Shown: positions 10,157 through 62,989 of the stretch, one piece after another
How the letters are laid out: the number at the start of each line of letters is the position of its first letter
How positions within the stretch are numbered: position 1 is the stretch's first letter
NCBI GenBank assembly: GCA_963713475.1
Contig: CAVQLY010000007.1
Location: 64,834-128,833 of the forward strand
Direction: 5' to 3'
DNA length: 64,000 nt
Origin: an uncultured Thermoleophilia bacterium
GTDB lineage: Bacteria; Actinomycetota; Thermoleophilia; UBA2241
Position numbers and translations under genes: made by a program
The notes under the pieces: generated by a model
Told to the model about the DNA's origin: nothing
Seen by the model: the letters and a program-made list of their open reading frames with translations, nothing else
The model's database searches: none

Positions 10157-10160
10157 GTCC

Positions 10161-12206: not shown

Positions 12207-12259
12207 CGCCGCTGCGTCACCGCGCTCACGCCGGCGCCCCGCACCGGCGACCCGCGCGT

Positions 12260-12267
12260 TGTACAAT
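12260..12267 (+). promoter_or_regulatory. Candidate -10 element (TACAAT) for pylT
   Basis: TACAAT at 12262-12267, 10 nt upstream of the tRNA 5' end. No convincing -35. Confidence 0.35.
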
Positions 12268-12277
12268 CGCGTCGCGC

Positions 12278-12350
12278 GGGGGGTCGATCGGAAGGATCAG
12301 CGCGGGCTCTAAACCCACGTAGGCGGGTGTGACTCCCGCACTCCCCGCCA
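12278..12350 (+). tRNA. pylT: tRNA-Pyl (anticodon CUA)
   Basis: 73-nt cloverleaf. Acceptor GGGGGGU/ACUCCCC (one G-U). Single nt between acceptor and D stem. D stem GAUC/GAUC with 5-nt loop GGAAG (no GG). 6-bp anticodon stem (one C-A mismatch). Loop CUCUAAA with CUA at 12309-12311. 3-nt variable loop. T arm GCGGG-UGUGACU-CCCGC without GTTC. Discriminator G. CCA encoded. Confidence 0.85.
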
Positions 12351-12397
12351 CAAGCTCCCTCTCCACCGTCTCCGCTGCCGGAGCCTCCGGCTCGCGG

Positions 12398-13330: not shown

Positions 13331-13400
13331 CGGGCACCTCGGGTCTGGATGGGCCGGGATGGAACCTTCGACGCGCGCTCCGGGCGCTCCTGCCCGCCCG

Positions 13401-13409
13401 TGCTAGACT
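13401..13409 (+). promoter_or_regulatory. Extended -10 element (TGcTAGACT) predicting a (near) leaderless pylSn transcript
   Basis: Hexamer ends 9 nt before ATG 13419. No Shine-Dalgarno in between. Confidence 0.4.
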
Positions 13410-13418
13410 GGCCTCCCG

Positions 13419-13748
13419 ATGCCGACCGACCCCACCAAAGCGCGGTACTACCGCAAGCAGGTCCCGCTCTTCCGCCTGGTCGAGAAGGTCAAGCTGTGGC
13501 CGTCGCGGCGCGGCATCCTGCACGGGATCAGGGAGTTCGAGGAGCGCGGCTCCTACGCCGTCGTGGTGACGCACTGCAACAAGCACATGGTCGTCCACGA
13601 CTCCAAGACGAGCCGCGCCGCCCGCTGGCTGCGCAACAAGTGGTTCGCGGAGGCCTGTCCGCAGTGCCGCATCCCCGAGTGGAAGCTCCAGAAGTACGCC
13701 TCGACGCAGTTCAAGCGGGGCTACGGGTCGCACCTCAAGGACCTGTGA
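13419..13748 (+). CDS. pylSn: PylSn, stand-alone N-terminal tRNA-Pyl-binding domain of pyrrolysyl-tRNA synthetase
   Basis: ..KLWPSRRGILHGIREFEERGSYAVVVTHCNKHMVVHDSKTSRAARWLRNKWFAEACPQCRIPEWKLQKY.. parallels the Methanosarcina PylS N-terminus ([52 protein letters not shown]). 109 aa. Confidence 0.85.
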   Translation: MPTDPTKARYYRKQVPLFRLVEKVKLWPSRRGILHGIREFEERGSYAVVVTHCNKHMVVHDSKTSRAARWLRNKWFAEACPQCRIPEWKLQKYASTQFKRGYGSHLKDL

Positions 13749-13800
13749 GCCGTCGCCGGCGCGACCGCTCTCGCGGGCGATGGCGGCTGGGACGCGCGTC

Positions 13801-14685
13801 CTAGAGCAGCCGCCAGCTCTCCGGCCGCAACTGCGTCGCGGCCGGTGCGTCCAGCACTCTGTCCAGCTGCGCGACGATGGCCGCCTTGTCGCCGGGCAGG
13901 CGGCCTCCGATCGGAAGGTAGTTCGAGGCGTGGTTGCAGCGGAAGAGGCAGTCGCTGACGTCGAGGTTCGCGACGATCTCGCGCAGTTCGCGCAGGATCC
14001 CGATGGAGTCCGGCAGCACGACCTGGCTGGTCGCCACCTTGCGCTCCATGGCCGTCCCGGGGGTCAGCATGAGGGTGAGCAGCCCGATGTACTCCGGGTC
14101 GATGGTCGAGAGGACCTCGCCGGTGGCCACTGCGTGCACCAGCGAGCGCTCGCGCCCGGCGAGCCCGAGGATCGCGGTCACCGAGAGCTGCATGCCGGCT
14201 TCCGACGCTCGCCGGCAGCCCTCGATCTGCTCCGCCACGGTGATGCCCTTGTGGATGTCGGCGAGCGTTTGCTCGTCGCCTGATTCGAGGCCGAGGTAGA
14301 GGAGCTCGACGCCGCGCTCACGCAGCGCCGCGAGCTCGTCCACGGACTTGCCGAGCAGGTTCCGCGCGTTGGCGTAGCTGCTCACGCGCTCCAGGTTCGG
14401 AAGCGCCCGGTGCAGGAGGTCGAGGATCGCGTCGAGCTTGCGCGAGCTGAGCGCCATGGCGTCGCCGTCGGCCAGAAAGACGCGGCGCACCCGCTGGCGG
14501 ACGGTGACCGGGAGGCCGGTGATGTCCTCGACGACCTCGTCGAACGGACGCACGGCGAAGGGCTTCTCCAGGTACGTGCCGCAGAAGTCGCAGGTGTTGT
14601 TGGAGCAGCCGTACGTGACCTGGACGATCAGGCTGTCGGCCTCGCTCGGAGGGCGGATGACGGCACCGTGGTATCGCATGTCCAC
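13801..14685 (-). CDS. Radical SAM protein of unknown function with atypical CX4CX2C cluster motif
   Basis: ..VQVTYGCSNNTCDFCGTY.. plus ..VFLADGDAMAL.., ..LYLGLESGDE.. radical SAM core. 294 aa. GTG start. Ends in TAG. Divergent from the corrinoid protein gene. Confidence 0.7.
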   Translation of the reverse strand: MDMRYHGAVIRPPSEADSLIVQVTYGCSNNTCDFCGTYLEKPFAVRPFDEVVEDITGLPVTVRQRVRRVFLADGDAMALSSRKLDAILDLLHRALPNLERVSSYANARNLLGKSVDELAALRERGVELLYLGLESGDEQTLADIHKGITVAEQIEGCRRASEAGMQLSVTAILGLAGRERSLVHAVATGEVLSTIDPEYIGLLTLMLTPGTAMERKVATSQVVLPDSIGILRELREIVANLDVSDCLFRCNHASNYLPIGGRLPGDKAAIVAQLDRVLDAPAATQLRPESWRLL

Positions 14686-14727
14686 GATGCTAGCATGGGC
14701 GCCCGGCCGGCGCGTCCCGGAGGGGTC

Positions 14728-14851
14728 GGCCGGATGGGCATGTCCGTTTCATGTTCGACCCTGTGCACTTGTGGTCGCGGATTCAAGCGGCTGATATACT
14801 CGCCCGCACGTGCTGAGGGAGGGCGTTCGGGGGAGCGTCCGGCCGGATGGG
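14728..14851. repeat. Direct repeat GGCCGGATGGG (14728-14738 and 14841-14851) in the radical SAM / corrinoid-protein divergent intergenic region
   Basis: Identical 11-mer cores 113 bp apart with similar flanks (..ATGTCCG / ..ATCCGGTCCG). Perfect palindrome ATGCTAGCAT at 14687-14696 next to the radical SAM start. Confidence 0.5.
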
Positions 14852-14963
14852 ATCCGGTCCGTACATTCCTCCGGCTTGCGGTGTCATGCGCCCGAACTCC
14901 GTACCCGCCATACCTAGTTGCGCGGTAAACAGTTGTGAGCAAAGTCGGGAGGAGTCCAGGGTC

Positions 14964-15597
14964 ATGGCAGACATCTACCAGGAAGCAGCCGAGAGCATCG
15001 TGAACGCCGACAGGGCATCGGTCCGAGGAGATCGCGCAGCGCGCGCTCGACTCGGGCATCGCCCCAGCGGACATCATGCAGAACGGCTTCGTCAAGGGCA
15101 TCCAGGAGGTCGGCGACCTCTTCGAGAGCGGTGAGGTCTTCCTCCCCGAGCTGATGATGAGCGCGGACGCCATGGCCGGCGCCACCGAGATCACAAACGC
15201 CGCCCTCGAGGGCGAGGCCGCCGAGGCCAAGGGCATCATGGTCATCGGCACCGTCCAGGGCGACGTGCACGACATCGGCAAGGCGATCGTCATCGCCTAC
15301 CTCAAGGCCAACGGCTACGAGGTCACCGACCTCGGCCGCGACGTCTCTGCCGACACCTTCATCGACAAGGCCAAGGAGCTCAACGCCGACGTCATCGGCA
15401 TGAGCGCCCTGCTCACCACCACCATGGAAGAGCAGAAGAAGGTCATCAAGCGCATCAAGGACGAGGGCCTCTCCTACAAGACGGTCGTCGGCGGCGCCCC
15501 GTGCACGCAGCGCTGGGCCGACCAGATCGGCGCCGACGCCTACGCCGAAGACGCCAACGACGGCGTCAAGAAGATCGACGCGCTGCTCGGCAAGTAA
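14964..15597 (+). CDS. Methyltransferase-cognate corrinoid protein (MtmC/MtbC/MttC-like); apparent +1 frame disruption near 15018-15027
   Basis: N-terminal cap helix MADIYQEAAESIVNADRA.. (frame 0) continues as EEIAQRALDSGIAPADIMQNGFVKGIQEVGDLFESGEVFLPELMMSADAM (frame 1). B12-binding DxHxxG motif (GDVHDIGK). ..SALLTTTM... About 210 aa if repaired. Confidence 0.75.
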
Positions 15598-15626
15598 GAC
15601 CGCCGCACAGCTGTTCAGGGTGACCC

Positions 15627-15663
15627 GAGAGGGGCGGGAGCGCGCAGCGCTCCCGCCCCTCTC
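15627..15663 (+). terminator. Stem-loop terminator after the corrinoid protein gene
   Basis: Perfect 17-bp stem GAGAGGGGCGGGAGCGC / GCGCTCCCGCCCCTCTC with 3-nt loop. Confidence 0.6.
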
Positions 15664-15728
15664 GCATTGAGGCGCGTATCGCCGTGCCGCGTGGGGTAGT
15701 CACTGGGTGTCGACGCGAGGAGGCGATC

Positions 15729-16430
15729 GTGACTGCGGCACCCATCGTGCTGGTACCCGGATTCTGGCTCGGCGCGTGGGCCTGGGATGAGGTCGCGGGC
15801 ATACTGCGCGCCGAGGGGCACGAGGTCACGGCGGTGACTCTGCCCGGCCTCGAATCGACCGATGCCGACCGCTCGGAGGTCACGCTGGCCGACCACGCGG
15901 AGACGATCCGCGACGCGGTCGCGGCGGCCGGACGGCCGGTCGTGCTGGCCGTCCACAGCGGGGCCGGGGCTCCCGGCTACGTCGCCAGCGACCGCATCCC
16001 CGAGCAGATCGCCGCCATGGTCTACGTCGACTCGGGTCCGGCCACCGGAGCGATCGATCCCGAGATGTCGGCGACGGAGTGGGCACTTCCCGCGTGGGAG
16101 GAGCTCGACGAGAACCTCGATGGGCTGACCGAAGCGCACCTCGAGGAGTTCCGCGCCCGGGCGGTGCCCGAGCCGGGCGCGGCGGTTCGAGATGCACCCG
16201 ACCTGAGCAACGAGGCGCGTCGCGACGTGCCGACGGTGGTCATCTGCACGTCGTTCTCGTCCGACGAGATCAAGGCCGCCGTCGCCGAGGGCTATGCGTG
16301 GACCGGCGGCATCGCCGAACTGCGCGACGTCACCTGGGTCGACCTGCCGACGAGCCACTGGCCGATGTGGTCGCGTCCGCGGGAGCTCGCCGATATCATC
16401 GGCGACGTCGCGAAGGCACACGCCTCCTAG
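15729..16430 (+). CDS. Alpha/beta-fold hydrolase
   Basis: ..IVLVPGFWLGAWAWDEV.., ..VLAVHSGAG.. nucleophile elbow. GTG 15729 preceded by GAGGAGG. Ends in TAG. Confidence 0.65.
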   Translation: MTAAPIVLVPGFWLGAWAWDEVAGILRAEGHEVTAVTLPGLESTDADRSEVTLADHAETIRDAVAAAGRPVVLAVHSGAGAPGYVASDRIPEQIAAMVYVDSGPATGAIDPEMSATEWALPAWEELDENLDGLTEAHLEEFRARAVPEPGAAVRDAPDLSNEARRDVPTVVICTSFSSDEIKAAVAEGYAWTGGIAELRDVTWVDLPTSHWPMWSRPRELADIIGDVAKAHAS

Positions 16431-16463
16431 ACGCCTGGCGGCGTGACTCGCGGCGCAGCGGCG

Positions 16464-17324
16464 CTAGAGGTTGAGGCGCACGCCGTCGACGTAGCTGAGG
16501 CTGCGTCCGGCGCGCTCGATATTGGGGTAGCCTTCGCGCGCCATGATGAGCCGCTCGACGCCGAAGCCGAGGCCCACCCACGGGTCGACGATGCCCCAGT
16601 TGCTGTCGAGGGGGTGGGGGCCGAGGCCGGCGGAGCACACCTCGGCGCCGTTCACGAGCACGTCGACCATCTCGCCGTACACCTCGGACTCGGTCACCTC
16701 GAGCTCGTAGTGCGCGATGCCCGCCGCGCGCATGACCAGTGACGCGAGCTCGACGAGCCGTGTGCGCCCCTCGCTCTCGGGCCTGCCGAGCTCGACGAGG
16801 TTGAGCATCGTGAACTCGTTGAGGTGGCTGGCGCCCTTGCTGTCGCGGCGGAAGCAGGGGCCGATCTCGAAGATGCCGAACGGCTTGCTCCAGTTGCGGT
16901 CGAGGCGCCGCAGCAGCGTGTACAGGTTCGGCGCCAGCATGGGCCGCAGGCAGCGGCCGTCCTCGAGCCAGAACACCTGGTCGCGCAGGGGATGGCCGTG
17001 CTCGATGCCCATCTTGCGCAGGGAGTCCGAGGCGATGATCAGCGGCGTGGCGACGCGCACGAAGCCGGCGTCGGTGAGGGCATCGCTGAGAACGCGCTCG
17101 AGCTCGATCAGCTGCGGCGCGCGCCTGCCGGCGCGCAGGTCCTTGAGCCGCTGCCGGCCGTCCTTCACGAGCTCGCCCTCGAGGCGCTTGAAGGCGGCGT
17201 CGCGCAGCTGGACGTCGGCGAACAACTCGTCGAGGACGAGCGGGTCGGCGCCGAGCTCGCGCAGCCGCTGCGACTGCGTCGCCGTGAGGCGAATGCGGAG
17301 GGCTTCGGCTTCGTCGGGCGTCAT
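16464..17324 (-). CDS. pylSc: PylSc, catalytic domain of pyrrolysyl-tRNA synthetase (bacterial split type)
   Basis: ..CLRPMLAPNLYTLLRRLDR..IFEIGPCFRRDSKGASHLNEFTMLNLVELG.., ..IVDPWVGLGFGVERLIMAREG.., C-terminus ..RSLSYVDGVRLNL closely parallel Desulfitobacterium/Methanosarcina PylS. ATG 17324 has a GAGGAGGAGG RBS and overlaps the amidase stop (ATGA). Ends in TAG. Confidence 0.9.
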   Translation of the reverse strand: MTPDEAEALRIRLTATQSQRLRELGADPLVLDELFADVQLRDAAFKRLEGELVKDGRQRLKDLRAGRRAPQLIELERVLSDALTDAGFVRVATPLIIASDSLRKMGIEHGHPLRDQVFWLEDGRCLRPMLAPNLYTLLRRLDRNWSKPFGIFEIGPCFRRDSKGASHLNEFTMLNLVELGRPESEGRTRLVELASLVMRAAGIAHYELEVTESEVYGEMVDVLVNGAEVCSAGLGPHPLDSNWGIVDPWVGLGFGVERLIMAREGYPNIERAGRSLSYVDGVRLNL

Positions 17325-18412
17325 GACGCCTCCTCCTCGTCCGCGAGTGGAGCGCGCGCGAGATAGTCGGCGAAGCCGCCGGCGAGCGCGCGCGCCAGTC
17401 GTTCGACGTGCTCCGGCCGGCGCGCCAGCGCCTCGTCCTCGGAGCTGGTGAGGAACAAGGGCTCGACCACGAGAGCGATGCCGCGGGCCTCGCGGAGCAG
17501 GGCGTAGTTGCGCCCGAACCGGCCCAGCCACGGCACGCCGGCGGCCTCCATGCGGGCGCCGATGGAACCCGCCAGCCGGCGCCCGTGTTCGGAGTAGTAG
17601 TGGCTGCGCTGGAAGTAGTAGCCGGCGGCGCCGCAGGCAGCCGGCGACGGCGCCTGGTTGCAGTGCAGCGAGAGGAAGAAGTCGGACGCGTTGCCGTTGG
17701 CCGCCTCGGCGCGCGCGTAGAGCGGCACGCGCTCGTCCGCGTCGCGCGTGAGCTGCACGCGGCAGCCCTCCGCGCGCAGCAGCTCGGCGAGCCGCAGGCC
17801 GAGCGCCAGCGCCACGTCCTTCTCGGCGAGGCCTCGCGCCGAGACGACGCCGGTGTCGGCGCCGCCGTGGCCCGGGTCGATGGTCACCGACTGGCCGGTG
17901 AGGCCGCGGGCGGCGACGTAGCCGCGGTCGCGCTCGGGGATCTTCTTGCCCTCGCGACCCGACTCGGCCTTGCGCACGGCCTCGAGCTTCGTGAGGGTGC
18001 TCTCGCCGACGATGCCGTCCGCCGGGAGGCCGGCGTTGCGCTGGAAGTCCAGCACGGCGCGCTCGACCTCGTCGTCGTGCACGCCGCGCTCGGGTCCGGC
18101 GTTGAACCCGAGCAGGTTGAGCTTGACCTGGAGCTGGAGGACGTCGTCGCCGCGGAACGGCGGTTCGCGCAGGTAGAGCAGGCGGTCGCCGAGCGCGTAG
18201 CCGGACTCCACCATCTCGCGCCAGGTGTTGGCGCCGACCCGCCCGTCGGCGAGCAGGCCGCGTTCCTGCTGGAACGAGAGGACCGCGGTCTCGGTGTGCG
18301 GGCCGAAGAAGCCGTCCACGCCTTCTCGGCCCAGCTCGAAGCCTTGCCCGCGCAAGCGGGTCTGGACGTCGAGGACTTCTTTGCCGCGGTCGCCGCGTGA
18401 AAGGTCGCGCAC
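17321..18412 (-). CDS. N-acetylmuramoyl-L-alanine amidase (two PG-binding domains plus Amidase_3 domain)
   Basis: Two GxxVxxLQxxLxxLGF-type repeats (KEVLDVQTRLRGQGF, DDVLQLQVKLNLLGF). C-terminal ..VTIDPGHGGADTG..FLSLHCN.. amidase_3 motifs. Confidence 0.8.
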   Translation of the reverse strand: MRDLSRGDRGKEVLDVQTRLRGQGFELGREGVDGFFGPHTETAVLSFQQERGLLADGRVGANTWREMVESGYALGDRLLYLREPPFRGDDVLQLQVKLNLLGFNAGPERGVHDDEVERAVLDFQRNAGLPADGIVGESTLTKLEAVRKAESGREGKKIPERDRGYVAARGLTGQSVTIDPGHGGADTGVVSARGLAEKDVALALGLRLAELLRAEGCRVQLTRDADERVPLYARAEAANGNASDFFLSLHCNQAPSPAACGAAGYYFQRSHYYSEHGRRLAGSIGARMEAAGVPWLGRFGRNYALLREARGIALVVEPLFLTSSEDEALARRPEHVERLARALAGGFADYLARAPLADEEEAS

Positions 18413-19913: not shown

Positions 19914-19999
19914 GCGGTTAGCACTCCACGCACCGTGTTTACAGGAGAAGGGCCTGAAGATAGTATCGGCCCGAAGTATTCCTGCTGAGGGGATGGTGC

Positions 20000-38892: not shown

Positions 38893-39886
38893 TCAGAACA
38901 GCGAGCGGATCGCCTGGCCGGCGAGGTAGACCGCGGCGCCGACGAGGCCGGCCGCCGGCAGCGTGAGGACCCACGCGGTGACGATGTTGCCCGCGACTCC
39001 CCAGCGCACCGCGGACAGCCGCTGCGTCGAGCCCACACCCATGATCGCCGCCGTGATGGTGTGGGTCGTGGAGACCGGGACGCCGAAGTGCGTCGCCAGC
39101 TGGATGACGGAGGCGGCGGCGGTCTCGGCGGCGAAGCCGTGGATGGGGTCGAGCTTGATGACCTTGGAGCCGAGCGTGTGGATGATGCGCCAGCCGCCGG
39201 AGTAGGTGCCGAACGCCATCGCGAGGGCGCAGGCGATCTTGACCCACAGCGGGATGGTGAACGTGTCGATCTGCCCGCTGGCGAAGAGCGCCAAGCGCGA
39301 TGATGCCCATGGTCTTCTGAGCGTCGTTGGCGCCGTGCGAGAAGGCCATGAACCCCGCGGAGATGGGCTGGAGACGGCGGAACCACGTGTTGACCGGCCC
39401 CTGCTGCCGCTTGCGCACCAGCCAGATGAGGCCGGTCATGAGCACCCAGGCGCCCACGAAGCCGAGGAGCGGCGAGCCCACCATGGGAAGGATGATCTTC
39501 TCGAAGACTCCGCTCCAGATGACGCCGCTGATGCCCGCACTGGCGATCATCGCGCCGATGAGGCCGCCGAACAGTGCATGGGACGAACTCGACGGGATGC
39601 CGAAACGCCACGTGATGAGATTCCACACCACCGCGCCGACGAGGGCGGACATGACGACCTGCAACGTGACGAGGTCCGTGTTGACGATGCCTTCGCCGAC
39701 GGTCTTGGCCACGCTCGTGGAGACCAGGGCGCCGAGGAGGTTGAGGCCGGCCGCCATGAGCACAGCGACGCGCGGCGAGAGGGCTCGCGTCGAGACCGAG
39801 GTCGCGATCGCATTGGCGGTGTCGTGGAAGCCGTTGGTGTAATCGAAGACGAGCGCCAGTACGACGATCGCGATGAGGAGGGCCAC
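38893..39886 (-). CDS. pitA: Inorganic phosphate transporter PitA family; apparent +1 frame disruption near 39288-39297
   Basis: N-terminal part ..VFDYTNGFHDTANAIATSV..FSHGANDAQKTMGIIAL (track ORF 38855-39886). C-terminal part ALFASGQID..GFAAETAAA..GVPVSTTHTITAAIMGVG.. (track ORF 38893-39294) is in the next frame. One extra G in ..CGCTTGGCGCTC.. would explain the break. Confidence 0.8.
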
Positions 39887-39900
39887 GGCCTGTGCTCAGG

Positions 39901-41372: not shown

Positions 41373-42563
41373 ATGGGAGCCGACCACGACGCATACTTCG
41401 ACGAGGTCGAGGCGCGGTTCGAGAACGCGCACGACCTCGACCTCGGTCTCGAAGAGGAGTTCCAGGTCCTCGACCGGGAGACGCTCGCGCTGACCGGCGC
41501 CTTCGAGGTGCTGCGCGACTCGGCGCCGCAGCGCCTGCGCGAGCGGATCGCCGGCGAGCTGCTCACCTCGGAGATCGAGGTCAGCACGCCGCGCACCCTG
41601 CACTTCGGGCAGGCGGCGAAGCAGCTCCTGCTCAACCGCGCCGAGCTGTTCGCGCACGCCGACGCCCAGGGCTATGCCCTCGGCGCCACCGGCACGCACC
41701 CCTTCTCGGGCTGGAAGGACCAGCAGATCATCGACACGCCGCACTACCGGCTGGTCGAGGACCGGCTCAAGTACGTGGCCTGGCGCAACAACACCTGGGC
41801 GGCGCACGTACACGTCGGGGTACGCGGCTGCGATCGTGCGGTGGCCGTGTGTGACGCGCTGCGCACCTATCTGCCGCACCTGCTCGCCCTCTCGGCCAAC
41901 TCGCCGTTCATCGAGGACGTGTGGACCCGCCTGCACTCGGTGCGCACCCAGACCTTCGTGCGCATGTTCCCACGCTGCGGCATCCCCGACGTCTTCGGCA
42001 CGTGGGCCGCGCACCGGAGCTTCTACGAGGAACTCGTCGACACCAACTGCATCCAGGAGTTCACGCAGATCTGGTGGTCGGTGCGCCCGCATCATCGCTT
42101 CGGCACGGTCGAGGTCCGCATCTGCGACGCGCAGACCGAGGCGTGGGAGAGCCTGGCCATCTCGTCGCTGACGGTCGGGCTCATCGCGCACCTGTCGCGC
42201 ATCTACGACGAGGGCCTGCCGCTGCCGATCCTCGAGACGCGGTACGTCGAGGAGAACCTCTGGCGGGCGATCCGCTACGGGCTCGACGGCAAGCTGGTGG
42301 ACTGGGCGATGGGGGAGGAACTGCCGGCTGCCGACGCCGTGCGCCATCTGGTTGAGCTGGCGGCGCCCTACGCCGACGCCATCGGCCTCAGTCCGCACCT
42401 GGCCGACGTCGAGCGCATGCTGCGCGACGGCAACGGGGCCCAGCAGCAGTCTCGAGCTCACGTCGAGGGTAAGAGTCTGCGGGAGGTGTTCGCCGGCACG
42501 GTCGCCCAGGCGCATCGCAGCTCGGTGGCGCCCACCGCCGCTACGCAGGGAGAAGAGAGATGA
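41373..42563 (+). CDS. ybdK: Carboxylate-amine ligase, YbdK / glutamate-cysteine ligase family 2
   Basis: ..LGLEEEFQVLD.., ..ELLTSEIEVSTP.., ..GTHPFS.., ..AHVHVGV.., ..ALSANSPF.., ..WWSVRPH..FGTVEVRICD... TAGAGT -10 at 41359-41364, 8 nt before ATG 41373. Confidence 0.8.
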   Translation: MGADHDAYFDEVEARFENAHDLDLGLEEEFQVLDRETLALTGAFEVLRDSAPQRLRERIAGELLTSEIEVSTPRTLHFGQAAKQLLLNRAELFAHADAQGYALGATGTHPFSGWKDQQIIDTPHYRLVEDRLKYVAWRNNTWAAHVHVGVRGCDRAVAVCDALRTYLPHLLALSANSPFIEDVWTRLHSVRTQTFVRMFPRCGIPDVFGTWAAHRSFYEELVDTNCIQEFTQIWWSVRPHHRFGTVEVRICDAQTEAWESLAISSLTVGLIAHLSRIYDEGLPLPILETRYVEENLWRAIRYGLDGKLVDWAMGEELPAADAVRHLVELAAPYADAIGLSPHLADVERMLRDGNGAQQQSRAHVEGKSLREVFAGTVAQAHRSSVAPTAATQGEER

Positions 42564-43138
42564 GCGAGCCGAACGATCGCCGGCGAGTGGTGTCGGACGA
42601 GGAGCGGGCCAAGGCGATGCTGGAGCAGCTCAAGGGCGTGCACGCGGTCGACATCGGCCGCGACATGGTCATCGCCACGGTCAACTTCAGCTACCCCAAG
42701 CTCGGCCTCTCGGACGAGACGCGCCCGGTGCGCGACCTGGACGACGTGCGCGTCTCCATCGAACTGGTCCGGGCGATCCTGGAGGTGCTGGAGCGGGAGC
42801 ACGCCGGGGAGAAGACGAGCGACCTGCACGACACGCTGGCGCAGATGCAGCTGGCGTACGCGCACGCGGTGCAGCTGGCCAACGCCGAGCGCGCGGCGAG
42901 CGCGGCGCCCGAGCCTCAGAGCGAGCCGGCGCCCGCAGAGGAGCCGGCCGCCGAGGAGGAGCCGGTGGCCGCAGAGGAGCCGGTGGCCGCAGAGGAGCCG
43001 GTGGCCGACAAGGAGCCGGCCGCCGCGAAGAAGCCGGCGGGCGGCAAGAAGACGCCGGCGACGAAGAAGCCCGCAGCGAAGAAGCCCGCGGCCAAGCGAA
43101 AGCCGGCCGCGAAGAAGAAGCCGGCCGGCGACAGCTGA
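42560..43138 (+). CDS. Hypothetical protein with acidic repeat and histone-H1-like K/A/P-rich C-terminal tail
   Basis: ATGA overlap with ybdK. Globular N-terminal half, then EEPVAAEEPVAAEEPVA repeats and ..KKPAGGKKTPATKKPAAKKPAAKRKPAAKKKPAG... Confidence 0.5.
   Translation: MSEPNDRRRVVSDEERAKAMLEQLKGVHAVDIGRDMVIATVNFSYPKLGLSDETRPVRDLDDVRVSIELVRAILEVLEREHAGEKTSDLHDTLAQMQLAYAHAVQLANAERAASAAPEPQSEPAPAEEPAAEEEPVAAEEPVAAEEPVADKEPAAAKKPAGGKKTPATKKPAAKKPAAKRKPAAKKKPAGDS
42956..43009 (+). repeat. Tandem 18-bp repeat (GAGGAGCCGGTGGCCGCA, three copies) inside the 42560-43138 CDS
   Basis: Direct reading of 42956-42973, 42974-42991 and 42992-43009 (last copy diverges at its 3' end). Encodes EEPVAA units. 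Confidence 0.8.
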
Positions 43139-52898: not shown

Positions 52899-53684
52899 GT
52901 GACCGAGCTCACCATCGCCCACATCAGCGACATCCACGCCGGGTCGCCGTACTTCGTGCCGAGCCTCATGGACCGGGTGGTCATCGAGCTCAACGAGCTC
53001 AATCCGGACATCGTCCTGTGCGCCGGCGACCTCACCGAGATGGGCTTCCGCCAGGACTACATGACCGCGCTCGAGTACCTCAAGCGCATCGAGGCGCCGC
53101 TCGTCGTGGTGCCCGGCAACCACGACTCGCGCAACGTCGGCTACGTCCACTTCGAGGAGCTCATCGGGCCGCGCGGCAACTCGCTGATGATGGACGAGGT
53201 CGCCATCGTCGCCCTCGACTCGAGCGAGCCGGACCTCGACTACGGGCAGATCGGCCGGGCCCGCTACGGCTGGCTGCGCGAGCAGTACGCCCAGCCGGCC
53301 GCCTTCCGCATCTTCATGCTGCATCATCACCTGCTGCCGATCCCCGGTACGGGGCGCGAGCGCAGCATGGTCCTCGACGCCGGCGACCTGCTCGAGGTGC
53401 TGCAGGAGTGCGGCGTGAACCTGGTGCTCTCCGGGCACAAGCACGTGCCCTACGCGTGGCGCCTCGAGCACCTCTTCGTCGTCAACGCCGGGACCTGCTC
53501 GTCCCTGCGTCTCAGGGGCAACACCAAGGCGTGCTACAACCTCATCCGCATCCGGGGCGACCGGGTGCAGGTGGCGCGCAAGTACCCGTTCCACGGCGAG
53601 GAGACGCTGATCGACTTCGTCCCGTCCACGGGGTCGTTCGACAAGTACATCTGCCCGGTGCCGCAGGAGGAGGAGAGCAGATAA
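52899..53684 (+). CDS. Calcineurin-like metallophosphoesterase
   Basis: ..IAHISDIHAG.., ..CAGDLTE.., ..VPGNHD.., ..LHHH.., ..SGHKH.. motif series. 261 aa. Confidence 0.8.
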   Translation: MTELTIAHISDIHAGSPYFVPSLMDRVVIELNELNPDIVLCAGDLTEMGFRQDYMTALEYLKRIEAPLVVVPGNHDSRNVGYVHFEELIGPRGNSLMMDEVAIVALDSSEPDLDYGQIGRARYGWLREQYAQPAAFRIFMLHHHLLPIPGTGRERSMVLDAGDLLEVLQECGVNLVLSGHKHVPYAWRLEHLFVVNAGTCSSLRLRGNTKACYNLIRIRGDRVQVARKYPFHGEETLIDFVPSTGSFDKYICPVPQEEESR

Positions 53685-53692
53685 GCGCTCGC

Positions 53693-55158
53693 CTGCCGCG
53701 CGCCGTCGTGCTCGTCGACGGCGAACATTACCCACCCGTGGTCGCGGCCGCCGTCGCGCGGCTGCGCGACACGTACTCCGTGGAGGCCGGCATCTTCGCC
53801 GGCGGCCGCGAGAAGCTGCGCGGCGACTCCGGGGAGGGAGGCGCGGAATGCGGGGGGCCCCGCCGGGGCCTCCGGCGACGGCCTCGCCGCCCTCGCGGCG
53901 GAGATCGGCGTGCCGCGGCTGGACGCAGTCGAGCCGCGGTCCGCGTCCGCTCACGAGGTGCTCGAGGGCGTGCGCGCCGCGCTGCGCGCGGCCGGCGCCG
54001 ACGCGCTCGTCGACCTCTCGGACGAGCCGGTCGTCGGCTACCGCGAGCGCTTCCTGCTCATGAGCGCCGCTCTCGCGGAGGGCGCGGTCTACGTGGCCGC
54101 CGACACCGAGGTGCGGCCGCAGGCGTTCGCCCGTCTCACGGCCACCCCGTCTCTGGCCGTGATCGGCACCGGCAAGCGTGTCGGCAAGACGGCCGTGAGC
54201 GGCTGGCTGGCGCGGCGGATCGACGCCGCCCGGCGGGCGGACGGCGGCGTCGTCGTGCTCGCCATGGGCCGCGGCGGCCCGCCGGAGCCGGAGCTCATCC
54301 GCGGCGGCGACGGGCTCGGCCCCGCCGAGCTGCTCGCCGCCTCCCGCGCCGGCCGCCACGCCGCCAGCGACTGCTACGAGGACGCGGTGCTGGCCGGAGT
54401 CACCGCCGTCGGGTGCCGGCGCTGCGGCGGCGGCCTCGCCGGCATGACCTTCGACGACAACGTGCGCGAGGCGCTGCCGCTGCTGGACGGGCGCGGCGCC
54501 GCGCTCGCCGTGATCGAGGGCAGCGGCGCCGTGGTGCCGCCGATCCTTGCGGACGCGACGCTGTGCGTCGCGGGCGCAAGCCAGCCGGCCGACTACGTCG
54601 CCGGCTTTCTCGGCACCTACCGCCTGCTGCTCAGCGACGCCCTGATGCTGACCCAGTGCGAGCCGCCGTTCGCGACGCCGGGCGAGGTGCGCGCCGTCAC
54701 CGCGGCCGCGAAGGCGGTCAAGCCCGGCCTCGAGGTCGTGCCGACGGTGTTCCGTCCGCGGCCGGCGCAGTCCGTCCGCGGCCGGCGCGTCGCGTTCTTC
54801 ACCACGGCGCCCGACGGCCGCCGCGCCGCAGCTGGCCGCTTCCCTCGCCGCGGACCACGGCGCCGAAGTGGTGCTCGTCTCGTGCGACCTCGCCGACCGC
54901 CGCCGGCTGCCGGATGCGGTGAAGCGGGCGGCCGCCGAGGCCGACGTGTTCCTCACCGAGATCAAGGCGGCGGCCGTGGACGTCGTCGCCGAGGGCGCCG
55001 CCGCCGCCGGCCGCGAGCTCGTGTTCTGCGACAACGAGCCCCTGTCGCTCGCCGGGGACCTGGGTGCCACCGTCGACCGGCTGGCGGCGCTCGCCGGCGA
55101 GCGCTTCGCCGCCCGCGTCGCGGATGCGCGGTCCGGTACCCGTGGCGTGGGAGCGTGA
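53693..55158 (+). CDS. Cyclic 2,3-diphosphoglycerate synthetase-like protein; two apparent +1 frame disruptions (about 53845-53862 and 54813-54822)
   Basis: Three collinear pieces in successive frames: ..AVVLVDGEHYPPVVAAAVARL..; ..LAALAAEIGVPRL..LAVIGTGKRVGKTAVSGWLAR..LAMGRGGPPEPE..VIEGSGAVVPP..VAFFTTAPDG; ..AAPQLAASLAADHGAEVVLVSCDLADRR..DVFLTEIKAAAVDVV... Start (CTG 53693 or GTG 53708) is uncertain. Confidence 0.65.
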
Positions 55159-56120
55159 CCGTGGCGGAGCACCGCGACATCCCGCTCATCGACGAGGGCG
55201 ACTCCCAGGCGCCGTTCAGCAAGGGCCTCATGGCGCAGACGCTCATGTCGACCGGGCTGGCGCCCGAGCGTGCCTACAACGTGGCGGCCGCCGTGGAGCG
55301 GCGCCTGCGGCGCCGCGGACCGGCGGCCCTCACCCTCGCCGACCTGCAGGAGATCGCGCGCGACCAGCTCGGGCCAGAGCAGGGCGACATCCTGATCGAG
55401 CGCTTCCGCCAGTGGCAGAAGCTGCGCCGCCTCGAGACGCCGCTGATCATCCTCATCGGCGGCGCCACCGGCGTGGGCAAGAGCACGCTCGCGACCCAGC
55501 TGGCGCACCGCCTCGGCATCACCCGGCTGATCGGCACCGACATGGTGCGACAGACGATGCGCGCGTTCTTCGCCCCGGAGCTCATGCCCGCCATCCACAC
55601 CTCGTCGTTCGACGCCGCCTCGGCCGTGCGCGTGCCGGTGCCGCGGGAGACCGACCTGAGCAAGATGGGCTTCATCGAGCAGACCAAGGCCGTCTCGGTG
55701 GGCATCGAGGCGCTCATCCAGCGGGGCGTCGACGAAGCGCAGCGGATGGTCGTGGAGGGCGTGCATCTCGTGCCCGGATACCTCGACAAGTCGAGGTGGG
55801 GGGAGGCGATCGTGCTCGAGTTCATGCTCGCGATCGCCGACAAGGAGCGGCACCGCAGCAACTTCACGGTGCGCGAGTGGGAGACCGGCGGCATCCGGCC
55901 GCTGCGGCGCTACCTCGAGCACTTCGCCGAGATCCGCCGCATCCAGAAGTACATGGTCGGGCGGGCGCAGGCGCTCGGCGTGCCGGTCATCGACGGGCCC
56001 ACCCTCGACGACAACCTGAACGAGGTGCTCGGCATGATCCTGCGCCGCGTGGAGGAAGAGGGCGGCGCGGACGCGCCCGCACGTGAGCCGCCGGCTGGGG
56101 GGGACGAGGCGACGGCTTGA
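55155..56120 (+). CDS. 2-phosphoglycerate kinase
   Basis: ..PFSKGLMAQTLMSTGL..AYNVAAAVERRL.. N-terminal domain. P-loop ILIGGATGVGKSTLATQLA. ..GIT..IGTDMVRQ.., ..VVEGVHLVPG... GTGA overlap with the upstream gene. Confidence 0.75.
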   Translation: MTVAEHRDIPLIDEGDSQAPFSKGLMAQTLMSTGLAPERAYNVAAAVERRLRRRGPAALTLADLQEIARDQLGPEQGDILIERFRQWQKLRRLETPLIILIGGATGVGKSTLATQLAHRLGITRLIGTDMVRQTMRAFFAPELMPAIHTSSFDAASAVRVPVPRETDLSKMGFIEQTKAVSVGIEALIQRGVDEAQRMVVEGVHLVPGYLDKSRWGEAIVLEFMLAIADKERHRSNFTVREWETGGIRPLRRYLEHFAEIRRIQKYMVGRAQALGVPVIDGPTLDDNLNEVLGMILRRVEEEGGADAPAREPPAGGDEATA

Positions 56121-56386
56121 CGCTGGACTTCAGTTTCGCCGCCACCGTCCGATAGACTAGGCGCACCCCCGGTCCACCGCTGCCGTCCCAGGCATGCAGC
56201 AGGGCCGCGTCCCACATCCGAGCGGGTACGAGGTTACTGGGAATCTCTTGCGCGGTATGACATACTTGGCACTGGAGCCCGCACGGACTCCCTCTTCCAT
56301 CGCACGTCCACCTTTACTCGTACGGCATCTCCCCATCGCGACCGCGTACCGCGTCGCACACAGGATGCCAGGAGTCCCGGGAGCCC

Positions 56387-58072
<1,686 letters not shown>

Positions 58073-58185
58073 TTTCGCGGCGGGAACGATTCGAAGGGGT
58101 ACCGGCGTTCGTGGTATCATCCCGCTTCGGCCTCGCGCCGACCTCACGTGACCACCGGGTTTGCTCCCAGAAGGGATCCGTTCAG

Positions 58186-58506
58186 ATGAAGAAAGACATC
58201 CATCCGCAGTACGAAGAAGCCACCGTGCACTGCAGCTGCGGCAACACCTTCACGACGCGCAGCACCAAGAAAGAGCTGCACGTGGAACTCTGCTCGCAGT
58301 GCCACCCGTTCTACACGGGCAAGCAGAAGCTCGTGGACTCGGGCGGCCGCGTCGACCGCTTCAAGAAGCGCCTCGAGAAGAAGTCGGACGAGCCGGTGAA
58401 GCCGAAGGCTCCCAAGCCCAAGGCTCCCAAGGCGGAGGCTCCCAAGCCCGAGCCGGTGGCCGTCGCCGCCGAGGCCGCACCCGAGGCCGAGACGACCGAG
58501 TCCTGA
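58186..58506 (+). CDS. rpmE: 50S ribosomal protein L31 (Zn-binding type) with K/P/A-rich C-terminal extension
   Basis: [39 protein letters not shown], then about 35 extra residues ..[19 protein letters not shown]... Confidence 0.9.
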
Positions 58507-58516
58507 CGGGCCTGAC

Positions 58517-59254
58517 ATGAGCGCCGAGCTCCGCGTCAGCCTCCTTCAGCACACACCCGACCCGGATCGCGCCGTCGCGATCGCGGGTCGGCTCTGTTAT
58601 GCGCCCGTGTCCGCCGCCGATCTCAAGCAGGAGATGAGCGACGAGGACGTCGGCAAGCTCGTCCGCATCCTCGTCCGCAGCGGCCATCACTCGGCGCTCG
58701 AACACGCCAGCTTCAGCTTCGCGGTCGACGGCGTGAGCCGCGCCTGCACGCACCAGCTGGTGCGGCACCGCGTGGCGAGCTACAACCAGCAGTCGCAGCG
58801 CTACGTGAACTTCGGCGAGGGCGACAGCTTCATCGTGCCGCCGAGCGTCTCCGCCAACGCGGAGGCCGAGGCGATCTTCCTCCAGGCGATGGAGGACGCG
58901 CGCGTCGCCTACGACAAGCTGGTCGAGCTCGGCCTTGCAGAGGGCCGCAAGCGGGAGAGCGTCCAGGAGGACGCCCGCTTCGTGCTTCCCAACGCGGCCG
59001 AGACCAAGATCGTGGTCACCATGAACGCGCGCGAGTTGCGCCACTTCTTCCAGGTCCGCTGCTGCAACCGTGCGCAGTGGGAGATCCGCGACCTCGCATG
59101 GCGCATGCGCGCCATGGTCATCGCGCTGGCCCCGAACCTCTTCGACGGCAGCGGTCCCGGCTGTCTCTACGGCTCCTGCCCCGAGGGCAAGATGACGTGC
59201 GGGAGCCCATTCAAACCCGAGGACGTCGACGGGCCGGCCGCTGCGCGCGGCTGA
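58517..59254 (+). CDS. thyX: FAD-dependent thymidylate synthase
   Basis: ..HSALEH.., ThyX motif RHRVASYNQQSQRY, ..REL.HF...R... 245 aa. Confidence 0.9.
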   Translation: MSAELRVSLLQHTPDPDRAVAIAGRLCYAPVSAADLKQEMSDEDVGKLVRILVRSGHHSALEHASFSFAVDGVSRACTHQLVRHRVASYNQQSQRYVNFGEGDSFIVPPSVSANAEAEAIFLQAMEDARVAYDKLVELGLAEGRKRESVQEDARFVLPNAAETKIVVTMNARELRHFFQVRCCNRAQWEIRDLAWRMRAMVIALAPNLFDGSGPGCLYGSCPEGKMTCGSPFKPEDVDGPAAARG

Positions 59255-59292
59255 AGCCCACGGCCGCACGACGGCCGCTCCGCTCCCCTGAC

Positions 59293-60246
59293 ATGACCCG
59301 ACGCCTCGCCCTCATCGCGCTCCTCCTTCCCGCCCTGGCCGCGCGTCGCGCGCAGGTCGGCGGGCAGGCCGTCATCGAGGGCGTCATGATGCGCGGCGTG
59401 GACTGGTGGTCGCTCGCCGTGCGCCGCCCGGACGAGACCATCGGCCTTCATCACTGGCCCCTGGTGAGCTGGATGAAGCGCTACCCGATCCTCAAGCTGC
59501 CGATCCTGCGCGGCGTCGTCGCCCTGGTCGAGTCGCTCGCCATCGGTGTCCGCGCGCTCACGATCTCGGCCAACGAGTCGCTGGGGGAGGAGGAGCAGGA
59601 GCTGGGCAAGAAGGAGATCGGCGTCACGCTCGTCATCGCCTTCGCCTTCGCCGTCGGGCTGTTCTTCATCGCGCCGCTGTTCCTCACCGGCCTCATGGAG
59701 CGCTGGCTCGGCGAGGGCTTCCTGTTCTGGATGGTCGAGGGCTTCGTGCGCGTCGGCATCTTCCTCGCCTATCTCGCCATCGTCACCCAGATCAAGGACC
59801 TGCGTCGCGTGTTCGAGTACCACGGCGCCGAGCACATGAGCATCCACGCACTGGAACACGGCGAAGAGCTCACGGTGGCCAACGTCGAGAAGTACAAGAC
59901 CCTGCACCTGCGCTGCGGGACGTCCTTCCTGCTCATCGTGCTGGTGGTCTCGATCTTCGTGTTCGCGGCCGTGGGGAGGCCCGTCTGGTACCTGCTCATC
60001 CTGAGCCGCGTGATCCTCGTCCCGCTCATCGCCGGCATCAGCTACGAGATCATCCGCTTCGCCGGCCGTCACGAGACCAACAGGTTCATCCGCGTGGTCA
60101 TGGCGCCCGGCCTGGCGCTCCAGTGGATGACCACGAAGCACCCCGACAGCTCGCAGGTCGAGGTCGCCATCGCCGCCCTCGAGAAGATCATCGAGCTCGA
60201 GCCGCAGGACCGACCCCCCGTGAAGGGCGTGGAGGTCATGGCGTAA
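59293..60246 (+). CDS. DUF1385-family membrane protein (YqhQ-like, typically next to prfA/prmC)
   Basis: ..VGGQAVIEGVMMRG.., ..YHGAEHM.., ..RCGTSF... ATG 59293 preferred over track start 59077. Confidence 0.75.
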   Translation: MTRRLALIALLLPALAARRAQVGGQAVIEGVMMRGVDWWSLAVRRPDETIGLHHWPLVSWMKRYPILKLPILRGVVALVESLAIGVRALTISANESLGEEEQELGKKEIGVTLVIAFAFAVGLFFIAPLFLTGLMERWLGEGFLFWMVEGFVRVGIFLAYLAIVTQIKDLRRVFEYHGAEHMSIHALEHGEELTVANVEKYKTLHLRCGTSFLLIVLVVSIFVFAAVGRPVWYLLILSRVILVPLIAGISYEIIRFAGRHETNRFIRVVMAPGLALQWMTTKHPDSSQVEVAIAALEKIIELEPQDRPPVKGVEVMA

Positions 60247-60255
60247 GCTGGGTCC

Positions 60256-61342
60256 ATGGCCACGATCGACGACCTCATCACCGAGATAGAACGCTCCTAC
60301 GACGAGCTCACCGCGCAGCTCGCCGACCCTGAGGTGCACGGCGACCGCGCGCGGTACGCAGACGCCGCGCGCGCCCACGCCGAACTCCAGCCGGTCCACG
60401 AGCTCACGCAGCTGTATCGCGAGGCGGAGCAGACGGTCGCCGACGCCGAGGGCCTCCTCGGCGACGACTCCAGCCGACGCCGAGATGCGCGAGTTCGCGC
60501 AGGAGGAGCTCAGCCTCGGGCGCCGGCGCGTCGACGAACTCAGCGAGGAGATCCGCGTGCGCATGCTCACGCGGGACCCCAACGACGGCAAGGACGTGAT
60601 CATCGAGATCCGCGCCGGCACCGGCGGCAACGAGGCCTGCATCTTCGCCGGCGAGCTCGCGCGGATGTACACGCGCTACGCCCAGGCCAAGGGGTTCGAG
60701 GTCGAGATCCTCTCCGCCAACGAGAACGACGACGGCGGCTACAAGGAGGTCACGCTCGGGGTCAAGGGCCAGGGCGCCTTCTCGATGCTCAAGTACGAGG
60801 GCGGCGTGCACCGCGTGCAGCGCGTCCCGGTCACCGAGGCCGCCGGCCGCATCCACACCTCCACGGCCACCGTGGTCGTGCTGCCCGAGGCCGAGGACAT
60901 CGAGGTCGACATCCACGCGGGCGATCTGCGCGTCGAGATCTTCCGCGCCCGCGGCCCCGGCGGTCAGAGCGTCAACACCACCGACTCCGCCGTGCGCATC
61001 ACGCACGTGCCCACGGGCGTGAACGTCAGCTGCCAGGACGAGAAGAGCCAGCTCCAGAACAAGGAGAAGGCGATGCGGATCCTGCGCGCGCGGCTGTTCG
61101 AGCTCGAGCAGGCGAAGCAGGACCAGGAGCGTGGGGCCGCACGCCGCAGCATGGTCGGCAGCGGCGACCGCTCGCAGAAGATCCGCACCTACAACTTCCA
61201 GCAGAACCGCGTCAGCGACCACCGCATCGGGCTCACCAGCCATCGCCTCACCGAAGTCATGGAAGGCGACCTCGACGAGTTCACCGAGGCTCTGGCCGCC
61301 GAGGACCGGCGCAAGCAACTGGCGGCCGCCGGCGGCGAGTGA
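60256..61342 (+). CDS. prfA: Peptide chain release factor 1; apparent +1 frame disruption near 60466-60476
   Basis: N-terminal part [35 protein letters not shown] (frame of 60256) continues as [14 protein letters not shown].. (frame of 60485). PxT-type tripeptide (VPVTE), GGQ motif (RGPGGQSVN), ..[14 protein letters not shown]... Confidence 0.85.
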
Positions 61343-61361
61343 CGCCGCCCGCTCGACCGGG

Positions 61362-61388
61362 TATACTCAGACCAGTCGTAGACCAGTC
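61362..61388 (+). promoter_or_regulatory. Candidate promoter/operator of the toxin-antitoxin module
   Basis: -10 TATACT (61362-61367) followed by direct repeat AGACCAGTC (61369-61377 and 61380-61388). GGGAG RBS and GTG 61403 downstream. Confidence 0.45.
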
Positions 61389-61402
61389 TGAAGGGAGCGG
61401 CC

Positions 61403-61645
61403 GTGGCGACCATCGGCGCCTATGAGGCGAAGACCCATCTGCCCGAGCTGCTCAAGCGCGTCGAGAGTGGGGAGCACATCACCATCGCGCGGCACGGGAC
61501 GCCTGTCGCGGTGCTCATCCCGGTCGGAGACTACCCTCGGCGTGATCCCGTGGCGGCGGCGCGCGGGCTTCTGGAGTTCGCCAGGACGCACAGCCGTGGA
61601 GACACCACCGTTCGCGAGATGATCGAGGAGGGCAGGCGGCGGTGA
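61403..61645 (+). CDS. Phd/YefM-type antitoxin
   Basis: ..IGAYEAKTHLPELLKRVESGEHITIARHGTPVAVLIPV.. typical Phd/YefM N-terminus. GTGA overlap with the toxin gene. Confidence 0.8.
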   Translation: MATIGAYEAKTHLPELLKRVESGEHITIARHGTPVAVLIPVGDYPRRDPVAAARGLLEFARTHSRGDTTVREMIEEGRRR

Positions 61646-62055
61646 CCGCGTTCGTCATGGACGCCTCCGTCACGATGGCGTGGGCGTTCCGGGAGGAACT
61701 GACGCCGTTCGCCGAGCGCCTTCTGGCGGACCTGGCGGCGGGAGAGGCGCTCGTGCCGGCGATATGGCCGCTCGAGGTGGCCAACGTGCTCCTGGTGTCG
61801 GAGCGCCGCGGCCGCATCACCCGGGTGGACGCGGCGCGATTCACCGAGCTCCTCCTCGGCATGCCCATCCGTGTACACGCCGCCACGGAGAGCTTCGCCT
61901 TCGACGAGGCGCTGCCACTGGCCCGCGACACGGGGCTCTCGGTGTACGACGCCAGCTACCTCGAGCTGGCCGGACGTCTCGGGCTGCCGCTGGCCACACT
62001 CGACGCCGCCATCGTGCGTGCAGCCCGCAAGGTCGGCGTCGCCATCCTCTCGTGA
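61642..62055 (+). CDS. vapC: PIN-domain ribonuclease toxin VapC
   Basis: ..FVMDASV.. (Asp 1), ..PAIWPLEVANVL.. (Glu), ..SVYDASYLELA.. (Asp), ..LATLD.. (Asp). 137 aa. Confidence 0.8.
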   Translation: MTAFVMDASVTMAWAFREELTPFAERLLADLAAGEALVPAIWPLEVANVLLVSERRGRITRVDAARFTELLLGMPIRVHAATESFAFDEALPLARDTGLSVYDASYLELAGRLGLPLATLDAAIVRAARKVGVAILS

Positions 62056-62086: not shown

Positions 62087-62989
62087 ATGACGACCCCGCC
62101 GACCGTCGGCGATGCGCTTCGGACTGCCGCGGCGCGGCTGCGCGCCGGCGGGTCGCGCTCGCCGCGCCTCGACGCCGAGCTGCTGCTGGCGAGCGCGCTC
62201 GGCGTGTCTCGCGCCGAGCTCTTCCGCGAGCCGGGCCGCACGCTGCTGCCGGACGAGGTCGCGCGGTTCGAGGAGCTCATGGGCCGGAGGGTCGCCCGGG
62301 AGCCGGTCGCGTACATCCTCGGCAGCCGCGCGTTCCGCACCATCGACCTCGAGGTCACGCCCGACGTGCTGATCCCGCGCCCGGAGACGGAGACGCTGGT
62401 CGAGGTCGCGCTCGAGGCGCTCGCGGCGATGCCCATCGCCGGGCCGGACCCCGAAGACGAGCCGCTCGCGCTCGACGTCGGCACCGGCTCCGGCTGCGTG
62501 GCGCTGGCGCTCGCCGCCGAGGATCCCTTCGTGCGCCTCGTCGCCGCGGACGTGGACCCCGGCGCGCTCGCAGTCGCGCGCCGCAACGGGCAGCGCCTCG
62601 GCCTGGCGCGCCGCGTGGAGTTCGTGCTCTCCGACCTGTTCGCCGACGTCGGTGAGCGGCCGTTCGACCTCATCGTCTCCAACCCGCCGTACATCCCCGC
62701 CGACGAGTACGTCGCGCTCGAGCCGAACGTGCGCGACTACGAACCGCGACGCGCGCTCTACGGCGGCGTCGACGGCCTCGACTTCTACCGCCGCCTGATC
62801 CCCGGCGCCGCGCTCCTGCTGCGCCCGGGCGGGACGCTGGCGCTGGAGGTCGGCGCCGGGCAGGCGGACGACGTGGCGGGCATCATCGACGCCTCCGGCG
62901 CGTACGAGACGCCGGAGCGACGCAGCGACCTCTCCGGCGTGGCTCGGGTGGTCTTCGCCCGCCGTCGCGGCGCCCGGGCCGGCGACTGA
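62087..62989 (+). CDS. prmC: Release factor glutamine N5-methyltransferase
   Basis: ..EPVAYILG...F..L.L.V...VLIPRPETE.., ..LDVGTGSGCVALALA.., NPPY motif (IVSNPPYIP). ATG 62087. Confidence 0.85.
   Translation: MTTPPTVGDALRTAAARLRAGGSRSPRLDAELLLASALGVSRAELFREPGRTLLPDEVARFEELMGRRVAREPVAYILGSRAFRTIDLEVTPDVLIPRPETETLVEVALEALAAMPIAGPDPEDEPLALDVGTGSGCVALALAAEDPFVRLVAADVDPGALAVARRNGQRLGLARRVEFVLSDLFADVGERPFDLIVSNPPYIPADEYVALEPNVRDYEPRRALYGGVDGLDFYRRLIPGAALLLRPGGTLALEVGAGQADDVAGIIDASGAYETPERRSDLSGVARVVFARRRGARAGD

Follow-up and report, generated by a model that had tools for sequence, protein, structure and literature searches.

The frame break in the release factor 1 gene of a pyrrolysine-encoding Thermoleophilia bacterium is very probably a consensus error

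Has an uncultured Thermoleophilia bacterium that carries a pyrrolysine (Pyl) system lost its release factor 1 (RF1), or is the gene broken in the deposited sequence only? The question is raised by a 64,000-nucleotide stretch of its draft genome, from here on referred to as the window, in which prfA (60256-61342, plus strand) encodes RF1 across two reading frames, first 0 and then +1. Were the break real, a bacterium with a Pyl system but no working RF1 would be a major finding, as an instance of natural UAG reassignment; the evidence says otherwise. An initial annotation, made from the sequence alone, had described a prfA split between adjacent frames after about 70 codons in an organism with a UAG-decoding system, had explained it by one extra base near 60466-60476 and had preferred an assembly indel over loss of RF1. 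The split is confirmed by Pfam, by the NCBIfam model TIGR00019 and by a DNA alignment with 11 relatives, and the extra base is a surplus C within 60472-60475. The decoding system is borne out by the Pyl cluster, its tRNA-Pyl and in-frame TAG codons in mtbB and mttB genes, and the preference for an assembly indel is upheld by the privacy of the base, the density of similar breaks, the commonness of TAG stops and a bridging public contig that lacks the base.

Both pieces of prfA are recognizable as parts of an ordinary RF1. Read from the ATG at 60256, codons 1-72 of the first frame match the beginning of the PCRF domain, and the +1 frame, over 60461-61339, continues this domain and then holds the whole RF-1 domain (Table 1). 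The prfA model TIGR00019 is divided in the same way and resumes in the second frame at profile positions 74-357. Alone, the 3' part scores above the TIGR00019 cut-off of 423.25 bits and lower, at 281.6 bits, with the prfB model TIGR00020, so that it shows both the PCRF to RF-1 order and the equivalog score expected of RF1. The P-x-T tripeptide recognizes stop codons and the GGQ motif serves peptidyl-tRNA hydrolysis; both, the former as PVT, are present in the translation of 60461-61342. The downstream sequence had been called intact and conserved, and this holds: the two motifs are kept, and comparison with the closest relative, L061, gives 27 synonymous and 6 non-synonymous codon differences in 289. 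No stop codon was found in these 289 codons, and the 5' part differs from L061 by 10 synonymous and 5 non-synonymous codons in 72. Judged by stops and by non-synonymous excess over L061, relaxed selection on prfA is not seen, although such a test has little power against a very recent lesion. What the deposited gene lacks is one uninterrupted frame, a property of 35 of 39 related loci, and we read this failure as a consensus error.

At the break, the window reads GAC GAC TCC AGC C GAC GCC GAG ATG. The genus relatives (11 prfA loci aligned over the 5' 400 nt) read either TCC TCC GAC GCC GAG ATG or ACC AGC GAC GCC at this place, and L061 reads GAC GAC GCG TCC GAC GCC GAG ATG. The surplus C falls in the CC at 60474-60475, its exact place being ambiguous within 60472-60475. 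In other respects the locus is like the usual bacterial prfA-prmC arrangement, with the same domains in the same order, both motifs and prmC downstream, and its prfA is 82-98% identical to that of genus relatives. It differs from the usual arrangement by the extra base after codon 72, with the resulting two frames, and by a phd-family antitoxin and PIN-domain toxin pair (61388-62052) between prfA and prmC that is not present in all relatives. Blocks of blastn similarity suggest that this stretch of about 750 nt is present in the relatives G001 and G003 and missing in G006, G002 and G007, where prmC directly follows prfA.

Table 1 Features of the pyrrolysine system, of prfA and of the frame breaks. 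Positions are those of the window unless preceded by a contig handle (C).
Feature	Position	Strand	Evidence or remark
pylB	9083-10153		NCBIfam equivalog
pylC	10155-11276		NCBIfam equivalog
pylD	11421-12203		NCBIfam equivalog
tRNA-Pyl, anticodon CTA	12278-12350	+	ARAGORN
pylSn	13410-13745		NCBIfam equivalog
pylSc	16467-17327	-	NCBIfam equivalog
mtbB (four genes)	C19:165-1484; C15:50864-52219; C14:15120-16476; C24:102913-104271		One in-frame TAG each
mttB (three genes)	C14:18538-19959; C15:47585-48994; C13:55708-57105		One in-frame TAG each
prfA 5' part, codons 1-72, RF1 domain 1 / start of PCRF	60256-60472	+	Pfam PCRF profile 2-58; TIGR00019 profile 10-71; 93% identity to L061
Extra-base site, surplus C in AGC-C-GAC	60472-60475	+	Relatives' alignments; codon-usage model switch at 60472/60473; public contig of run X3
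prfA 3' part, +1 frame: rest of PCRF, RF-1 with PVT and GGQ, stop TGA	60473-61342	+	Pfam PCRF 61-194 and RF-1 1-116; TIGR00019 446.1 bits
prmC, release factor glutamine-N5 methyltransferase, intact, usual partner 3' of prfA	62126-62986	+	TIGR03534 270.8 bits (cut-off 199.1)
Insertion in pylC tail (about 11279), shifts last ~40 codons	11276-11293	+	Five-genome alignment; tblastn frame switch against G003 ORF
Insertion at 15018 in corrinoid protein gene (14928-15594)	15017-15022	+	Alignments; TIGR02370 profile 16-196 in downstream part only
Insertion at 39293 in PitA-like phosphate transporter gene (38896-39892)	39289-39294	-	Seen against five of five relatives; model junction; NF033774
Two insertions (about 53847, and 54815) in ORF 53690-55128	53827-54817	+	Alignments; model; public contigs omit one letter at 53847 and 54814
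Drawn junction, DAO			Pfam profile 1-50 / 82-208
Drawn junction, Peptidase_M20			Pfam profile 17-104 / 112-200
Drawn junction, Aminotran_3			Pfam profile 10-273 / 275-398
Drawn junction, THF_DHG_CYH_C (FolD)			Pfam profile 2-74 / 78-159
Drawn junction, Peripla_BP_6			Pfam profile 1-109 / 125-341
Drawn junction, class-I Glu/Gln-tRNA ligase			Pfam, tRNA-synt_1c / anticodon-binding domains
Drawn junction, NuoF			Pfam, FMN domain / 4Fe-4S domain

The Pyl system itself is genuine. The cluster at 9083-17327 is complete (pylBCD, tRNA-Pyl, pylSn and pylSc), and over its length the DNA is 75-82% identical to that of four genus relatives; genus relatives that align over this stretch keep an intact prfA. 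Methyltransferase corrinoid protein and alpha/beta hydrolase genes also lie in the cluster. The candidate clients are dimethylamine and trimethylamine methyltransferase genes: a single in-frame TAG is found in each of four mtbB and three mttB genes. At least about 13 further genes of the MttB superfamily are without TAG, and mtmB was not found in the assembly. The organism resembles other Pyl-using bacteria, in which split pylSn and pylSc, pylBCD and tRNA-Pyl occur together with a retained RF1, in having the full cluster, clients with in-frame TAG and TAG as a frequent stop; UAG is both stop and Pyl codon here, as is usual for such bacteria, and the code is not a reassigned one. It differs from them in that the host is a Thermoleophilia-type actinobacterium. 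In a survey of 81 bacterial PylRS genomes, only two are from Actinobacteria (PMC9630628). One publication was found that mentions pyrrolysine and Thermoleophilia together, and it appears, by its title, to do so only incidentally.

A complete Pyl system with UAG-containing mtbB and mttB genes is also what would be seen if RF1 had been lost and UAG reassigned to pyrrolysine throughout the genome. The use of stop codons argues against this reading. Among 2188 modelled genes with an end within 30 nt of a stop, 1667 terminate with TGA, 455 (20.8%) with TAG and 66 with TAA. The next in-frame stop follows at a median of 56 codons after TAG and 61 after TGA, and another stop lies within 10 codons in 8.4% versus 11.3% of cases, respectively. 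Neither depletion of TAG nor an excess of back-up stops is seen in this gene set. RF1 is thus needed, TAG being a common stop that is not backed up by others. Such a genome-wide count had been proposed in the initial annotation, and its outcome contradicts reassignment. That annotation had also counted eight TAG-ended genes in the window, rho among them, which is roughly right: seven modelled genes end in TAG (at most 45 nt from the modelled end), including rho and pylSc, and two more are doubtful. Together with the intact prfA of the genus relatives that align over the Pyl cluster and with the retention of prmC, these figures make a genome-wide reassignment vanishingly unlikely. As a separate observation on rho (56405-58066), its TIGR00767 match begins at residue 187 of a 554-aa modelled segment, leaving a putative N-terminal extension of about 185 aa that has no profile match.

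Among 39 related loci, none shares the extra C of this assembly. Two overlapping sets of relatives, both drawn from the same genome collection, were compared. In the first, a whole-genome search of 30 relatives, a prfA-level match was obtained in 16 of 18 genus genomes; the other two are incomplete (64% and 83%), G016 giving no match and G017 a prfB-level match only. The N- and C-terminal parts lie in one frame in 17 of 19 loci, and in 14 of 16 within the genus, the exceptions being L002 and L006, with breaks close to codon 22 and some 20 codons past the break of the window. The second set, from a species-representative collection, comprises 41 Thermoleophilia-type prfA loci, 39 of them with both parts, and here the parts share one frame in 35. 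The four broken loci (L062, L072, L097 and L133) are broken at four different places, none of which is that of the window, and the nearest relative, L061, is intact, with 98% identity in the 3' part and 93% in the 5' part of prfA. The 27 records whose contigs bear plain 'contig_N' names include all four broken copies, versus none among 12 with names in the style of short-read assemblers; plain names of this kind probably go with long-read assemblers. Sporadic breaks, each at its own place, look like the behaviour of errors and unlike that of a conserved recoding site.

This pattern also bears on the idea that prfA is read by programmed +1 frameshifting, in the manner of prfB, and that the level of RF1 is thereby tuned against Pyl-tRNA at UAG. 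A +1 shift is indeed what the deposited sequence would require, both frames are open at the site, and the organism does possess the classical device in its own prfB, where a canonical programmed site (GGAG-N3-CTT TGA C) lies at C22:99281-99287 on the minus strand. As in the prfB system, in which RF2 regulates itself through CUU UGA C, the parts of a release factor lie here in the 0 and +1 frames. The likeness ends there, however. A prfB site is conserved and combines a slippery CUU with an in-frame UGA and, upstream of them, a Shine-Dalgarno-like element; the prfB of this organism has all of these features and its prfA break has none. The sequence at the prfA break, GAC TCC AGC CGA C, contains no slippery motif of the CTT-TGA type, no in-frame stop and no Shine-Dalgarno-like stimulator. 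No stop codon marks the site, and the first frame remains open until 61425, giving a 389-aa ORF that is off-frame past the break. None of the relatives shares the two-frame arrangement at this place. In addition, 318 breaks occur genome-wide, and inspection by eye shows no motif common to the six window sites that were aligned. Programmed frameshifting in prfA is accordingly an extremely improbable account of the break.

The number of 318 comes from a codon-usage model, for which 796 long, high-GC3 ORFs from the same genome served as training set, run as a seven-state Viterbi procedure (non-coding and six frames). A junction was counted where a coding segment has another one in a different frame within 45 nt on the same strand, each being at least 150 nt long and both frames being open for more than 45 nt across. 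Over the whole 3.27-Mb draft, the 318 same-strand frame switches correspond to 9.7 per 100 kb, a density at which a gene of 1.09 kb is struck about one time in ten. Applied to the syntenic 66-67 kb of relatives, the same model yields no junction in G006, G003 and G007, one in G001 and four in G002, and within the window it recovers junctions at 39289, 54816 and 60472. Per 100 kb, individual contigs carry between 0 junctions (C2 and C16) and 21, with 19-21 on C3, C14 and C24. This unevenness would fit uneven read depth or a mixed origin of the contigs in the bin.

To judge from Pfam, most of these junctions are real breaks in the sequence. In a random draw of 20 junctions, at least seven interrupt a single Pfam domain or enzyme, the two pieces matching consecutive profile positions (Table 1); three fit a standard two-domain architecture (ABC_tran/TOBE_2, TetR_N/TetR_C and EamA/EamA), nine are undecided and one resembles two genes. 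The direction is skewed: the +1-base type accounts for 242 of the 318 and the -1-base type for 76, and all six window sites checked by alignment are insertions. Natural indels in bacteria are usually reported to be biased towards deletion, and the excess of insertions thus fits a technical origin better. Homopolymers are not enriched at the 318 junctions (a run of at least 4 nt lies within 20 nt of 19.8%, versus 23.6% for random places). A homopolymer origin of the breaks was rejected on these grounds, runs near junctions being no longer than at random places, and the commonest error mode of long reads is consequently no explanation for them.

Several of the struck genes are indispensable or belong to the Pyl system. 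The isoleucyl-tRNA ligase gene ileS (C9:176086-178627, minus strand) changes frame at profile position 684/685, likely another consensus error, and pylC and two of the four mtbB genes are broken as well. Loss of ileS, a Glx-tRNA ligase, folD and prfA together would be impossible for a free-living cell with a coding density of 85%, so the breaks are not all real. A spot check of long essential genes found secA, gyrA and dnaE intact and only ileS split (three of the four genes found being intact); rpoB and rpoC were not found anywhere in the assembly, and this spot check alone would not convince. Dense breaks, damage to indispensable genes and near absence of such breaks from four of five relatives are thus all found here. 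The assembly, with 26 contigs, a completeness of 87.6% and 318 breaks, resembles other indel-rich drafts, in which consensus errors split genes and lower completeness, and the prfA copies of relatives are likewise broken each at its own place. It differs from such drafts in that its breaks are insertion-biased and not tied to homopolymers.

Within the window, six genes other than prfA had been proposed to carry the same +1 break. Alignment with four relatives verifies five further one-base insertions private to the window, distributed over four other genes (Table 1), and a possible further one near 41126, in poorly conserved sequence. In the PitA-like transporter, profile NF033774 is divided between the two pieces at positions 15-239 and 381-492. 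The doubly broken ORF, of about 480 aa, has no Pfam or NCBIfam match and is kept in four of four genus relatives; immediately downstream of it lies the gene for 2-phosphoglycerate kinase (55131-56075). A tblastn screen with the ORFs of relatives gave additional candidates at 19978, 27178, 30675, 31965, 33880, 35042, 46814, 58073 and 62965, all of which were discarded as intergenic or variable stretches; at a GC content of 70%, off-frame and antisense ORFs are long, which makes the screen noisy. Also discarded were the private indels of G002 in the five-way alignment, largely alignment noise in the most divergent of the sequences. Opposite 41424-42818 of the window, G002 has about ten private one-base insertions in 1.4 kb, and three of its four model junctions lie there; this stretch is either locally error-rich or a misaligned divergent gene.

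The other way to take the extra C at face value is as a real and very recent mutation that has turned prfA into a young pseudogene, or that belongs to a minority variant taken up in the consensus, with RF1 missing or truncated from an in-frame ATG four codons past the break (ORF 60485-61342, 285 aa). The presence of this ATG is in favour of such a mutation. A second intact prfA elsewhere had been named as an observation that would refute a real loss of RF1, and tblastn finds only the single copy in the whole assembly, which is 87.6% complete; the remaining release factor matches are prfB on contig C22 and two short genes with an RF-1 domain on C23 and C24. The absence of another copy likewise leaves room for a real lesion, but loss of RF1 should be strongly harmful where TAG stands without close back-up at a fifth of modelled gene ends. 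Also against a real mutation, the 3' sequence has not decayed, all near relatives lack the base, and about one gene in ten is similarly broken, including ileS and another tRNA ligase, which cannot all be real. A recent real mutation is, on balance, very unlikely. A variant of it is less likely still, namely that the C is real and RF1 is kept low, whether by a non-standard +1 shift at AGC-CGA or by initiation at ATG 60485, which would give a form without domain 1. If this were true, termination at UAG would be weakened and Pyl insertion favoured in the seven UAG-containing methylamine methyltransferase genes.

Public sequence data allow a limited comparison at the site. A run search returned 21 runs with part of the window, the best sharing 0.47 of sampled words; contigs of X1, X2 and X3 (threshold 93% alike) and the raw reads of X21 were compared with 53501-61500. 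No read of X21 was placed on this stretch, so that this run provides no test. The contigs differ from the 8-kb stretch by five indels in total: two in-frame three-base events, at 55202 and 58480, and three one-base omissions, such that all frame-changing differences sit at suspected error sites and the window is always one base longer. At 60472 the base is omitted in X3 (30.5 of 30.5 depth, in a single contig, the sole one to bridge the site), at 53847 in X3 (6.74 of 6.74) and at 54814 in X1 (7.23 of 17.5), where the rest of the depth agrees with the window, so that public data do not contradict all insertions of this kind. Given a threshold of only 93%, the contigs, that of X3 included, may be from related strains, like the relatives compared above. 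Reads one base shorter, which had been named as refuting a real break, are thus seen only indirectly, through one contig of another metagenome. No contig of X1 or X2, the runs most like the window, extends over 60472, which leaves some room for a real mutation; certain X2 pieces nevertheless match the window exactly (0 differences over 60234-60425, for instance).

Taken together, the break in prfA is very probably an assembly or consensus error of an indel-rich draft and not a feature of the organism, and we infer that the extra C is absent from the real DNA. The prfA of the organism would then be an ordinary intact RF1 gene, to which the deposited consensus adds a spurious C at 60472-60475, one of some 300 single-base indel errors, mostly insertions, across the draft metagenome-assembled genome. 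The shift of the last 289 codons to the +1 frame would exist in the deposited record alone. A full-length RF1 of about 361 aa is most likely made by the cell and would terminate translation at the many UAG and UAA stops, and UAG would be read by Pyl-tRNA in a few genes for methylamine methyltransferases, as it is in other Pyl-using bacteria. For work on this genome, the finding means that the assembly has about one frame-breaking indel per 10 kb, that gene calls and completeness estimates are degraded by the same indels, and that its split genes, including pylC, mtbB and ileS, are to be treated as errors until reads show otherwise.
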